DNA from: Octopus sinensis
Taxonomy: Eukaryota
Reading direction: 5' to 3'
Length of the DNA: 64,000 bases
NCBI RefSeq assembly: GCF_006345805.1
Contig: NC_043001.1
Coordinates: forward strand, 92,442,001-92,506,000
Part shown: positions 5,843 to 53,084 of the stretch, in pieces
Position numbering within the stretch: the stretch's first letter is position 1
Layout: the number at the start of each line of letters is the position of its first letter
The notes under the pieces: generated by a model
The model's input: the letters and a program-made list of their open reading frames with translations, nothing else
Databases searched by the model: none
What the model was told of the DNA's origin: nothing
Program-made: the position numbers and the translations under genes

Positions 5843-5988
5843 ATGAAGAGTTATTCTCACGCATCAAGTATTCGTCAGCTATGCTACGAAACTATTCCGC
5901 AAAGATTGTTTCGTTATGCGCTTGAAGATCCAGAAAAGGTAGCATTTGTTTATTATGACAACAAAATTCAACGAACACAGATAACACG
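5843..5988 (+). CDS. ANL-family enzyme paralog 1, first coding exon (MKSYSHASSIRQLCYETIPQRL...RTQITR)
   Basis: ATG at 5843; 146 nt; donor CG|GTGAGT; polypyrimidine/AG acceptor at 5793-5794 in the 5'UTR; homologous to exons at 31774 and 48539. Confidence 0.9.
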
Positions 5989-8032
5989 GTGAGTACTATC
6001 ATATTTTAATATTTTCTCTGGGATATTTCCACTTTCCTTATTGGAAAGATTAAATACAGGGGTTTAGAACCTTTCACAAAATAACGTCTTTTAAACACGC
6101 TTTTTGGATGTATTGCAAAACAAAAAGAAGATTGTTTCAGTCAAAAAGAACCTTATTTAGCGAAGTGATTTATTTACCATATTTCAGTATAGTATCCCAT
6201 CCAATATGTATCTATTTCTAGAAAGAGAGAAATTATATAATGAAATTACATTAGACTTTGGCGCATGTTTTCTTCTTACAAATAACACACTATCCTATTA
6301 ACATTTTAATCCAACAAAAATTTTTTTTTAGTGTTTATCAGATATATGTACGTGGGATCTTAAGCTGTATTTCTAAAACAAACATCACTCAATATAAAGG
6401 ACCGGAGCACTTCAACATAGTACTGATGTGCTCTAGTACTTTAGAATATAGAAAATATATATGTAGAATATAATTACAAATTGAAATAGTATTATCTGGT
6501 AATTGATTATTGATTAAAGTGTATTCCTCCATTTTCTTATTTTGTATGTAGAATATATATATAGACTAGAATACATACATACACACATACATGCGCACAC
6601 ACGCACACACAAGCACAAACACACACACACACACACACACACACTCACACAAACACACACACACACACACATATATATCCTGAAAATGTTTCTTTGTGAA
6701 GGTTTCTTTCCTACTTCCCATAAAGAAAAGGCATTATATGTTGATTAAACATCCTCCCGTAGAAGTATACACAAGTTCAGTTACTAAATTTCACTTATGA
6801 TTTTGTGATTGGCATCCTATGAGGACCGTTTTGGTAAGAACAGTGATTATCGTAAATTAGAGGAAAGTAGCCAATATCACTGGGTATGTTAAACGAGTCA
6901 TAACTTATGAAATTACGTACACATATTAGTATTGAGTATCTATTGACCATTCATTTGCCTTTCTTTTTGAATTTGGGTCTAGAAATAGCTTGTACAGAGA
7001 CGTCATGTAAGTTACTGAAAGCCAATATTATATTTGCTAGTTTATGTGAACACAATTACAATTAGAACAACATTAAAATATATATTCCTGTGGCCAGTGA
7101 AAGATATATGATGATTTCTAATATAAATCCTAATGGCGAAAACTGAAAATCAGTTTGCCATTCTGCTGTAGTAGCTTATCCACAGCCATTAAATTATATG
7201 AATATAAGTCACATAGTGATGCATACAATTTATAACTCAAAGAGATGAGCTAAATATCAATATTTCTCATGAATTGTAAGGCAGTGAGGTGGCAGAGTCG
7301 TTACCACGTCTTTTCATCCTGAGTTCAAATTCCGCATTTTGGGGTCAATAAAACAAGTACTAGCTGTGTACTGGAGTCGATGTAATTGACTTACCTCTTC
7401 TTCGAAAATCAACCATTTATTTCCCCTACACAGATCCTAATACCAGTTGCATAGATTTTATTTATGAAAGCCATCCATCCTATTTCATCAGGTTCAATAT
7501 GCATTCATGAGAAATTAATTCAGTATATATTGTTTTCAAATTTTGGTACAATGCCAGCAATTTCAAGCGAGGGTGTAAAGTCGATTACGTAGGCCGCAGT
7601 GCTCAGCTAGTTCTTGTTTTATTGATTGACCGCGAAAGAGTATATATGTATATATACCAGCCTAGGGAGTGGAGCAGGTAAAATCCAGGCTACGTAAATT
7701 TCCTATCTAGCAGATCCTCAGAGATAATAATTACCCGAGAAGTACTCCGCTAGCTACTCGTCAGGCCGAAGATGCCTTAATTGTATGAAGGTTAAATTGT
7801 CGTTAAAGAGTCTCACGTTAACTCGCCAGAGGCATATATAGATGCATACATACATACATACATACATACATACATACATACATACATACATACATACATA
7901 CATACATATATATATATATATATATATATATTGTATATATGTAGCATAATCCTCAAACACTTAAATATATTTGTAACATGCATTCAACTTACCGACGTAT
8001 TATCTGCATTTCCTTTATTATTTTCTTTCAAG

Positions 8033-9473
8033 GAGAGAACTCTACGAAGGTACTGAAGCGTTTGCAAAGTTCCTTGTGGGAAAAGGAATCAAGAAAGGTG
8101 ATCGAATTGCCCTCTGTGTATCGAACTGTGTTGAGTGGATGACATATGACAGCGGTATTATGTTGGCAGGAGGATGTTCGGTGAGACTCTGGGCCGGACA
8201 AGCTGATTTCTTGCCCATGTTAGAAGATTGTGTGGCAGCAATTTTTGATTCAGATCCAACCTTTTACAATAAGTTACTTAAGGTGGCAGATATTTCCGAA
8301 AACGGTAAAGTGGTCAGTGAAACTTTTCCTAACCTGCGTTTAGCTATAAACGTTTCTGAAATAAAGTCTTTACGTACAACCAACTGCCAAAACATTAACC
8401 TTCCCCACATGGAAGCCGAAGATGTCACAATCATTGTGCAAACGTCTGGGTCAACAGGGAAACCTAAGCGGGTTACTCATAGCAGCTTTGATATCATCAA
8501 CTGTGCATCGTGTTATTGTGAGAAAGCTGGTATAACACAGAATGATGCAGTTTTTAATGAACGTTATTTTGGCTATGGTGGATCATATCCTCTCTCATTT
8601 GTGGCAACTGGGTGTAAATATGTCTCTGCAGATATGTGTAGCTTAAACTGCCCAAAGGATTTCCAGAAACTTAAGAATCTCTTAACGAAGGAGAGCTGTA
8701 ATATTTCATCTATGATTCCAGCTGATTTACGTTTATGTACAGGTGATAAACCGATTTTAGATTTAGTTATGTTAGCTGGTGATATACCTTCGTATGATGC
8801 TATGAAACAAGGTTTATTTTGGACAAAAACTATTGACAACTTTCTTACAACTGCCGAAACCCTAATGATTGCAGTGAGGAGATTCAGCAAGGATAATATT
8901 GGGGAATATTATCCGGGACTGATAGGTCCACTACTACCTAATGTGGAAGCGAAAATTGTTGATGACCATAACAATATTGTCGATATCGGAAAAGATGGTT
9001 ATTTATGTGTACGAAGTAGGTGGTGTACGAAAGTTTCAGCTGATGGGAAACCAGTTCTAGATGATGGATGGTTTAAGACAAGAGACATTTGTAAAATGAC
9101 TGAGGATAAGGAAATAATTATGCTTGGCAGAGACGTTGACTTCATTCTGAAGTCAGCTAGAAAAGTGCCAATTAAATTTGTTGAGAATCATGTACAGCGT
9201 CACCCAGATATTGATGGCGTTGTAGTTGTTCCTATTCCGGATGAAGAACATGAATTTAAAGTTTGTGCTTGTGTCATTATGAAATCTGGGAAAAGGTTTG
9301 ATGAGAAATCAATCCTTAAGTTCTGCAATGAATATATGCCTCCACCAAGTTTCTTCGATTATGTAACATCCACCCCTGACTGTCTTATTCAGTTTGATAG
9401 GTTTCCTAAACTAGGGAACGGAAAAGTTGACAGACTTTCAATAAAAGATTTAGCGATTAATCGTTTAACTTAG
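8033..9473 (+). CDS. ANL-family (acyl-CoA synthetase/luciferase-like) enzyme paralog 1, main exon; spliced protein 528 aa
   Basis: Acceptor ttttctttcaag|G restores frame (phase 2). GIKKGDRIAL, P-loop QTSGSTGKPK, GWFKTRD, PKLGNGKVDR. Confidence 0.93.
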
Positions 9474-51150: not shown

Positions 51151-51589
51151 ATCAGTTATTCCGACCCTTGCTAGTGCTCTATGTAACCTAACTTTTTCTC
51201 AACTATAGATGTAATCTCTATGTTGTCTCCAGCACCGTTGACTGTACACCAATACAACGAACTGTTCCTCAGAAAAGGAACTCTCTCCATACATACGTAC
51301 ATACATACCATGTCTAGATATGCAACTATATGCACGAGAATACAAACATAAAGCAAAACATGCATGCATACATACATACATACATACATACATACATACA
51401 TACATACATACATACATACATACATACATAAAAATATACCCTGTTGCTGATGCTGAAATTCCAATGAAAGATCCTTGATTCTAGGTTAGAAACCGGATCT
51501 TTCTCTATTGGCAAGAAATCTTGAAATAAAACTGAACAATGACATACATACAAACACACATTTAACTATCTATATATTTTCACTTACAG

Positions 51590-53084
51590 AAAACAACTCT
51601 ATGATGGAACAGAGCAGTTTGCCAAAGCCCTTGTCAAGCAAGGAATCAAGAAAGGTGATCGAATTGCCCTCTGTGTATCGAACTGTGTTGAGTGGATGGT
51701 ATATGACAGCGGTATTATGATGGCAGGAGGGTGTTCGGTGAGACTCTGGGCCGGACAAGCTGATTTCTTACCCATGCTAGAAGATTGTGTGGCAGTAATT
51801 TTAGACTCAGACCCAACATTTTACAATTTATTACAGAAAGAGGCAAAGATTTCAGAAGATGGTACTGCAGTTAGTGGAAGTTTCCCAAAACTGCGTTTGG
51901 CCATTAATGTTTCAAAAACAAAATCACCAATTAAAGGTCTAAGTCTTCAAAAGATGATAGAACAGGTAAAGCAAGATAAAAGTATAACCCTTCCTTTGAT
52001 GGAGGCCGAAGATATCACAATTATTTCACAAACATCTGGAACAACAGGAAAACCTAAGCGGGTTACTCATAGCAGCTTTGATATCATTAATGCTTCGGAA
52101 GTTTATTGTAAAGAACTTGGTTTAACTGAAAATGATGGATTTTTCAATGAACGTTATTTTGGTTTTGGTGGGTCATACCCTCTCTCATTTATAGCAACTG
52201 GGCTGAAATATGTCTCTGCAGATATATGTAGCCTAAATGCCCCAAAAGACTTCACTAAACTGAATGAAATCTTGAAAAATGAAGGATGCAAAAAGATCGC
52301 TTTAATGCCATCAGATTTACATTTCTGTCCAGAAAAGGAAAACATGATGGATTTCGTTATGATAGCAGGTGACATGACATCCTTAGATAATATAAAGCGT
52401 GGTTTATCTTGCTCAATATTAATCGATCACTTTATGGCCACCGCTGAAACTCTAATAATTGGTCATAAGAGTTTCACGAAAGACAACGTTGATAGTTATG
52501 TTCCTGGAATAATTGGCCGACCATTTCCAGATGTGGAAGTAAAACTTGTGGATGATAATAACACAATTGTCGACATCGGCGAAGAAGGTTATTTATGTGT
52601 GCGAGCTGTATGGTGCTCAAAAGTGACTGCTGACGGAGAATCAATTCTAGACAAAGGATGGTTTAAGACAACAGATATTTGTAAAATGACTGAGGATAAA
52701 GAAATAATTTTGTACGGCAAAGACGTTGACTTCATTACAAAGTCAGCTAGAAGAGTATCAAGTAGATTTGTTGAGAAACATGTATCAGGTTCTCCAGATG
52801 TTGACGATGTCGTCGTTGTCCCGATTCCAGATGAAGTACACGGATCGAAAATTTGTGCTTGTGTCATTATGAAAAATGGGAAAACATTTGACGAGAAATC
52901 CATTTTTCAATTCTGCCACGAAAACATGCCTCAGCCAAATAACTTTGACAACATTTCATCTACTCCAGATTATTTTCTAGAGTTTAACAAATTTCCTAAA
53001 CTAGGAAATGGAAAAGTTGATAGATGTTTAATGAAAACCACGGCAATTGCACGTTTAATCAAAAAATCAAAGCATTTTTGTTAG
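51590..53084 (+). CDS. ANL-family enzyme paralog 3, main exon; spliced protein 546 aa
   Basis: Acceptor ttttcacttacag|A in frame with ORF 51696-53084; same motifs as paralog 2. Confidence 0.93.

Follow-up and report, generated by a model that had tools for sequence, protein, structure and literature searches.

Three intact two-exon genes on C5

We analysed a stretch of 64,000 nucleotides of the Octopus sinensis genome (C5:92,442,001-92,506,000; the window), whose forward strand carries three tandem genes, g1, g2 and g3, encoding proteins of the ANL superfamily. Each gene has two coding exons: g1 at window positions 5843..5988 (146 nt, with a phase-2 GT donor) and 8033..9473, g2 at 31774..31919 and 34595..36122, and g3 at 48539..48684 and 51590..53084. 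Exon 1 of g1 has 57% and 55% identity to exon 1 of g3 and g2 respectively. All three introns have GT..AG borders and interrupt the same codon in phase 2, and the gene models contain no internal stops. The predicted proteins of 528, 557 and 546 amino acids confirm the three intact open reading frames (ORFs) described in an earlier note on this DNA; g1 has an 11-residue deletion relative to g2 and g3. Each of the three exceeds the curated Pfam cut-offs for AMP-binding (PF00501) and AMP-binding_C (PF13193), with E-values of 1e-29 to 1e-31.

The g2 and g3 proteins are letter-for-letter identical to O. sinensis RefSeq entries XP_029636916 and XP_029636917, both annotated as 'putative acyl-CoA synthetase YngI' (CoA, coenzyme A), and the g1 protein matches two 528-residue proteins, O. 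vulgaris CAI9723264 at 99.1% identity and O. bimaculoides XP_014780454 at 89.6%. Given the Pfam E-values and the presence of intact orthologues of g1, g2 and g3 in other Octopus species, the trio are real genes and not chance ORFs. An assembly artefact or a set of pseudogenes was ruled out, since two further species carry intact orthologues and the ratios of nonsynonymous to synonymous substitution (dN/dS) are below 0.5. A tandem AG acceptor in g1 (window 8030-8036; splicing at 8033 or 8036) permits a product of 528 or 527 amino acids, the orthologues having the 528-residue form.

The 'tandem trio' of the earlier note is real but belongs to a larger array. A fourth intact two-exon paralogue (549 amino acids by its RefSeq match, XP_029636918) lies at C5:92.518-92.520 Mb, about 11 kb beyond the window end, and is followed by a frameshifted pseudogene copy at C5:92.533 Mb, the pair spanning C5:92.518-92.534 Mb. 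Among the four intact genes dN/dS was 0.32-0.47 (Nei-Gojobori); these genes are under purifying selection.

Evidence of expression came from four of 24 listed sequencing runs, aligned to g2 exon 2 and its flanks, with g1 outside the comparison; the runs used carry no tissue label and are not on record as RNA. A 1,975 nt contig from run X1 begins at the g2 exon-2 acceptor, and the loose letters at its 5' end agree with the last 30 letters of g2 exon 1 at 30/30 positions. The loose 5' end of a contig from run X17, which belongs to a different study, matches the end of g3 exon 1 equally well (30/30), and a second X17 contig includes the g3-specific tail. As these contig ends at the acceptor continue into exon 1, spliced forms of both genes exist; g2 and g3 are expressed and spliced, which answers for these two the earlier note's concern that the genes might be silent. 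Nothing on the tissue of these genes is given in the main text and one supplement of PMC12607849 or in the main text of PMC11431876.

The g2 and g3 coding sequences are near-identical over residues 200-424 (window 35046..35720 in g2), with 13 nucleotide differences in approximately 675 nt compared with 47 and 43 in the flanking 225-nt (75-codon) blocks, a pattern consistent with gene conversion. When the two genes were compared with the O. bimaculoides pair, 15 informative sites grouped the copies by orthologue, all within residues 446-540, and 31 grouped them by species, all within residues 14-437; the O. bimaculoides pair is labelled as isoforms and its shared first 296 residues may reflect annotation, although 14 of the species sites lie beyond residue 296. 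This distribution fits homogenisation of the catalytic domain within species by gene conversion, with the C-terminal domains staying paralogue-specific.

Kinship with the Watasenia crystal proteins and other molluscan ANL enzymes

A profile of 11 octopod sequences was searched against 1.84 billion representatives. The top match was luciferase-like protein 4 (wsluc4) of the firefly squid Watasenia scintillans at 461 bits, compared with 310 bits (Sinanodonta) and 295 bits (Liolophura) for the best non-cephalopod single-domain proteins; further matches were a tandem Tegillarca protein and many multi-module nonribosomal peptide synthetases (NRPSs), whose scores sum over modules. A second octopus cluster, at C8 48.06-48.19 Mb, has at least nine exon-2 copies, eight of them with open frames; their identity to exon 2 of the window genes is 36-41%. 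Like the window genes, the C8 copies and those of Argonauta (RefSeq 'ACSF2-like', e.g. XP_014790470) have a two-exon layout with the intron after codon 49.

For the careful tree, 22 rows were picked from a quick 54-row tree and included wsluc2 (AXM90648) and wsluc4 (AXM90650); 4CL, the beetle luciferases, wsluc1 and wsluc3 stand outside it, the last two being compared by eye only. The window cluster, the C8 and Argonauta copies, an additional protein (P0296) and wsluc2/4 formed one clade with support of 100/99, and the same coleoid clade had 100 SH-aLRT support in the quick tree. It joined bivalve, chiton and slug ANL proteins (Sinanodonta KAL3846671, Liolophura XP_064601866, Tegillarca KAJ8298633 and the Plakobranchus 'oxalate--CoA ligase-like' protein P0036) as its sister group at 100/100, apart from the ACSF2 outgroup; these molluscan outgroups are long branches and their mutual order is unclear. 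The intact octopus genes g1-g3 belong, with the Watasenia crystal proteins, to one cephalopod ANL family, and the radiation suggested in the earlier note is upheld by tree and profile scores alike.

Within the coleoid clade five lineages emerged without clear order: the window cluster with the wsluc proteins had a p value in the approximately unbiased test (p-AU) of 0.129, and all octopod copies together 0.41. The stem branch of the window cluster is long (0.69). Scored against wsluc4, the C8 copies reached 323-396 bits and the C5 copies 250-272, so that by score the window genes appear not to be the closest octopus relatives of wsluc4 and the C8 cluster is the more wsluc-like. A direct alignment of g2 with wsluc4 spans 547 columns with 2% gaps, at 31% identity and 288 bits. 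Raw identity was not used as evidence, because global identity to the window proteins fails to separate the wsluc proteins (30-33%) from bivalve, chiton and beetle ACSF2 proteins (29-32%). P0296 is approximately 50% identical to wsluc2/4 and has a short branch, Thr at the A8 site and an intact YGSTE; it appears to be a relative less derived than the squid crystal proteins, which sit on their own long branch (0.68) from it.

Orthology of the window cluster to ACSF2 was rejected; nesting among ordinary molluscan ACSF2-like enzymes was part of an outcome that the earlier note had said would count against its proposal. A constrained grouping with ACSF2 was rejected (p-AU 1.4e-5), and O. sinensis has a separate multi-exon ACSF2 at C13:20.449-20.479 Mb with canonical YGSTET, MLGYW and GRIKDMIIRGGENIYP. 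The ACSF2/YngI-type medium-chain acyl-CoA ligases share the ANL fold, P-loop and A10 Lys with the window proteins and are the source of their automatic annotation; the canonical ACSF2 motifs HCFG, YGxTE, MxGY, TGD and RGGENIYP are all absent from g1-g3. An ACSF3-like gene, so labelled from a reading of its motif, lies at C1:139.93-139.94 Mb. With separate ACSF2 and ACSF3-like genes present, the labels 'ACSF2-like' and 'YngI' on the clusters are misleading.

Horizontal transfer or an NRPS origin was likewise set aside, as the nearest relatives are molluscan and the NRPS matches weak, although no donor test was made. NRPS domains led the sequence matches among solved structures, at weak scores, and the ESM Atlas returned generic AMP-binding clusters only, the top one mostly molluscan with 179 members. 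Unlike NRPS amino-acid adenylation domains, the window proteins are stand-alone ORFs lacking a carrier-domain partner, with Gly242 at the position of PheA Asp235, and score 79 of 317 bits against the amino-acid adenylation model TIGR01733. No NCBIfam CoA-ligase family cut-off was approached among the matches listed (best 177 of 832 bits).

The relationship between octopus proteins and wsluc has already been published (2016, 2020). In the part of PMC4899746 drawn on here, the only matches above 30% to wsluc1-4 are O. bimaculoides proteins (up to 40%), which form one clade with them; XP_014790470, one of the three octopus accessions in that 2016 tree, is C8-type in our analysis. A literature search with most subscription journals outside it yielded nothing on the octopus clusters or on the lost motifs. 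The genes are annotated, their wsluc link is published and most of their odd motifs are not special to the window locus; the window genes are a distinct octopus subfamily of an already noted wsluc-related family.

The C8 cluster has an unusual layout. On the minus strand of C8:48,155,000-48,190,200, one canonical exon 1 (48,190,106-48,189,961) precedes six exon-2 copies in tandem, of which five have an intact frame and acceptor and one is frameshifted; in a gapless 100 kb, no further exon 1 turned up ahead of the next gene. Several catalytic exons might be joined alternatively to one common first exon, or the layout could reflect orphaned exons or a collapsed assembly. Two O. bimaculoides relatives each own a slightly different first exon. 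A further O. bimaculoides protein, P0325 (655 amino acids), has an N-terminal extension that resembles a transposon-like ORF adjoining the C8 copies and is probably a gene-model artefact. P0325 may be the octopus protein that PMC4899746 cites in support of the wsluc1 extension.

Shared and private changes in the catalytic motifs

Motifs were compared in an alignment of 141 rows, comprising 9 from the window cluster, 10 C8/Argonauta, 3 wsluc-type, 3 bivalve/chiton and 116 background rows; the rows are related and not independent. Motifs are named A1-A10 by the usual nomenclature. The earlier note's readings of kept and altered motifs were correct throughout. All three window proteins have the P-loop TSG(S/T)TGKPK (A3; T197-K205 of g2, window 35037..35063) and the A10 sequence NGKVDR, with the catalytic Lys524 of g2 at 36018..36020. 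A5 reads FLTTAE in g1 and FMATAE in g2 and g3 (MATAE of g2, 35439..35453); A7 reads KTRD or KTTD, and the A8 loop GRDVDFILKSA or GKDVDFITKSA (TTD to A8 of g2, 35673..35753). The register between A7 and A8 is secure because the window proteins align there without a gap to CoA and aryl ligases of solved structure; the five such ligases whose alignments were inspected retain RGG at A8, unlike the window genes. The A8 loop of the fourth paralogue, SRDDLFIQKET, is the most deviant.

The catalytic core stays invariant across the molluscan clade although overall identity drops to approximately 30%: T197, S198, G199, G202, K205, G309, E335, D411, E444 and K524 are found in 25/25 molluscan-clade rows, and the P-loop, the Mg-binding A5 Glu, the A7 Asp and the A10 Lys in 9/9 cluster rows.

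Most of the altered sites are altered well beyond the window. The A8 Gly, retained in 115/116 background ANL proteins and in 650/652 pattern-matched NRPS modules, is replaced in all 27 molluscan-clade proteins, by Ala, Thr, Asp or Ser in the 25 aligned rows and also in the Tegillarca and Plakobranchus proteins. The substitution differs by group, being Ala in g1-g3 (Ala435 of g2), Thr in the C8 copies and Asp in wsluc2/4. The A8 loop Gly lines the pantetheine tunnel, and a bulky residue at this site (acetyl-CoA synthetase G524L, 4-chlorobenzoate ligase G409) reportedly blocks thioester formation but not adenylation. The A4 His is also replaced mollusc-wide, an aromatic residue (Phe or Tyr in the window genes) standing there in 24/25 rows, and at the hinge 24/25 rows have V, T, S or L (one has D), compared with K in 94/116 background rows. 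TGD has become TxD coleoid-wide and in Sinanodonta (24/25 rows), while Liolophura and Tegillarca retain TGD. The stretch from the A6 Arg to the A7 Trp is 20 residues without GY in 19/19 octopod rows, and 24-25 residues in 109/116 background rows; in the wsluc-type rows it has 22 residues, with GY in 2/3. Such changes are not specific to the trio: the A8, TGD and MxGY changes recur in the C8 cluster, and the A8 change in wsluc2/4 and in bivalve, chiton and slug relatives. Sharing of this kind is part of what the earlier note itself had listed as speaking against its proposal.

Only the remodelling of YGxTE at A5 is private to the window cluster. Tyr and Gly are found in 0/9 cluster rows and Ala replaces Thr in 8/9, the three sites being occupied by Leu/Met, Ala/Thr/Ser and Ala; the other 16 molluscan-clade rows all retain Tyr, as do 103/116 background rows, of which 112/116 have Thr or Ser at the Thr site. 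The cluster thus departs from the Tyr-Gly-x-Thr of A5, which contacts adenine and the alpha-phosphate and is a consensus feature, not what defines the superfamily at the level of fold. In addition, the A8 Arg is Lys in g2 and g3 of O. sinensis, whereas the O. bimaculoides orthologues retain Arg.

Set against their relatives, the window proteins resemble the wsluc proteins in their type of N-terminus, TxD at A7, the missing A8 Gly and the A10 Lys; wsluc1 and wsluc3 look similar by eye in their first 400 residues (Table S4 in the supplement of PMC4899746). Unlike the window genes, wsluc2/4 retain Tyr in A5 and GY behind A6, and their A8 Gly site is Asp, followed by Cys-Cys; the window genes have lost the GY along with the A5 residues, are clade relatives and only possibly orthologues of wsluc, and have no photophore context. 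The C8 and Argonauta copies share the 20-residue A6-A7 stretch, TxD and the absence of the A8 Gly, but the C8 copies retain YG(S/T)(T/S)E, carry Thr at A8, lie on another chromosome and have fast-diversifying pockets. The molluscan sister proteins have the A8 Gly and A4 His replaced and GxP after A4, as in the window genes, but keep YGxxE and the full A6-A7 stretch, with TGD in some.

A fold model of g2 built on the 141-row alignment had a pLDDT of 90.8 and a pTM of 0.87, replacing an earlier 11-sequence model that reached a pLDDT of 54 only. It has the ANL fold with both domains and the hinge intact, and g1-g3 show the AMP-binding N-terminal domain and small C-terminal domain that define the superfamily (Pfam, 3/3; model). 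Foldseek matches (E 1e-37) to luciferases, aryl-acid ligases, ACSM2A and NRPS domains were about equal, at TM scores of 0.60-0.77 and 15-21% identity; firefly luciferase, 4CL, aryl-acid and NRPS adenylation domains and the amide-bond synthetase McbA share the fold and are about equally remote.

Pocket-lining residues diverge fast in the six-copy C8 array. Among five recent C8 copies the nonsynonymous (pN) and synonymous (pS) proportions were 0.209 and 0.154 in 32 pocket-lining columns, compared with 0.052 and 0.147 elsewhere, a pN/pS of approximately 1.4 versus 0.35 that was reached by 2/479 shifted masks. This excess is as expected of enzymes diversifying in substrate.

Candidate chemistry of the window proteins

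In the sections of PMC8905533 drawn on here, the ANL P-loop is assigned to ATP, and the A5 Thr, conserved throughout ANL enzymes, is given as a phosphate ligand; ribose is said to be bound by the A7 Asp and A8 Arg, and adenylation to be served by the A10 Lys. A8 and the first C-terminal strands are described as entering the active site for the second, thioester-forming half-reaction. On these roles adenylation is probably kept in the window proteins, at an AMP site that is reshaped and perhaps weaker, and the second conformation is probably non-standard.

The explanation that we favour, tentatively and without holding it to be the probable one, is that g1-g3 would adenylate a small non-amino acid with ATP and then pass the adenylate on by a second step that does not use CoA. 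ATP-dependent adenylation would still run, perhaps slowly, as three or four AMP-contacting residues are gone. The substrate would be a small molecule, an alpha-amino acid being argued against by Gly242 at the PheA Asp235 position. The thioester-forming conformation or the pantetheine tunnel would be altered, so that the adenylate may be handed to an amine, an alcohol or water instead of CoA. In the cell, the proteins could then activate or tailor small metabolites or compounds from the diet, with the cytosol as the site; no transit peptide or peroxisomal targeting (PTS1) tail was apparent in the window proteins when judged by eye.

Several observations weigh against this explanation. The Ala of the window genes is the mildest of the A8 changes and pantetheine entry may still be possible, and the A8 change is common to distant molluscs whose proteins could be ordinary CoA ligases. 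The missing A5 Thr, A5 Tyr and A4 His, with Arg-to-Lys in g2 and g3, argue against efficient adenylation. The C8 variation had been seen by eye before the pocket mask was defined, the pocket signal of the window cluster was below significance (g1, g2 and g4, the fourth paralogue; 42/479 shifts) and g2 and g3 have zero amino-acid differences in the pocket. Finally, no partner biosynthetic gene was found among the eight other long window ORFs scanned with Pfam, three of which had reverse transcriptase or transposase matches and five none.

It is possible, though we doubt it, that the window proteins are acyl- or aryl-CoA ligases for unusual acids, from a molluscan family that rebuilt the CoA tunnel and tolerated motif drift. 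CoA ligases account for all of their best family scores, both domains and the hinge are intact in the fold, the A4 gate is still aromatic, the A8 Gly site has changed no further than to Ala in g1-g3, and the drift at A8, TGD and the hinge is common to non-cephalopod molluscs. Against a CoA ligase, the A8 loop Gly expected of acyl- and aryl-CoA ligases is kept in 115/116 background ligases, and other members of the clade have Thr or Asp there; the separate ACSF2 and ACSF3-like genes imply that housekeeping acyl-CoA supply is independent of the cluster.

Pseudoenzymes usually lose the catalytic Lys, Glu, Asp and P-loop first, and these are precisely the elements that are invariant in the cluster rows. 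We therefore think it unlikely that the window subfamily consists of nucleotide- or ligand-binding pseudoenzymes or of structural proteins, perhaps assembling like the Watasenia crystals, and the A8 Arg retained in the O. bimaculoides orthologues points the same way. Such a role would nevertheless accord with an A5 whose Tyr, Gly and Thr are gone in this cluster alone, the Thr being a conserved phosphate ligand, with Lys for the A8 Arg in g2 and g3, with the long stem of the cluster and with g2 and g3 C-terminal domains that stay distinct while the catalytic domain is homogenised. The part of PMC4899746 used here also describes wsluc1-3 as forming crystals and leaves their catalysis unconfirmed.

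Luciferase activity of the window genes is unlikely. That they would be luciferases or oxygenases acting on a coelenterazine-type substrate, as in the proposed wsluc reaction, is most improbable: they share a clade with wsluc2/4, a sister position to wsluc was not rejected and the top Foldseek match is an ancestral firefly luciferase (at 18% identity, level with many other ANL enzymes), but wsluc2/4 have their own long branch from P0296, the C8 copies outscore the window genes against wsluc4, and these Octopus species are not known to be luminous. In the parts used of the papers on wsluc, moreover, activity of wsluc itself is not demonstrated, PMC4899746 leaving it to be verified.

The rest of the window holds mobile and repeated sequence. 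A non-LTR (long terminal repeat) retrotransposon ORF with reverse transcriptase and zinc-binding domains lies at 59631-61550 (+), with a decayed second copy at 55184-57138 (+); there is a mariner-type fragment at 14977-15429 (+), and a pair of ORFs at 17401-18308 (-) that is Penelope-like by eye and has no Pfam match. A near-tandem duplication at 27958-29325 consists of approximately 750 nt of AT-rich microsatellite sequence, 90% identical.

The absence of a near-invariant ANL Gly from every molluscan-clade member examined suggests that animals have an enzyme family whose second half-reaction is non-standard; a literature search with most subscription journals outside it found no description of this molluscan loss. 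As candidate luciferases, the Watasenia crystal proteins are still unconfirmed in the parts of the literature used, and the native enzyme is insoluble; expressed relatives from non-luminous octopuses offer comparators for the ground-state reaction of the family. In a wider scenario, which we put forward as speculation and consider improbable as a whole, molluscs would carry an unrecognised ANL family that early on abandoned the canonical CoA half-reaction and that coleoids expanded into substrate-diversifying arrays. One branch would have led to the crystal luciferase of the firefly squid, and the octopus branch would also have rebuilt its AMP site and would carry out some new chemistry that depends on adenylation, the substrate possibly being a heterocyclic enol (coelenterazine-type or a pigment precursor). 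If true, this would reveal the dark ancestral reaction behind squid bioluminescence.

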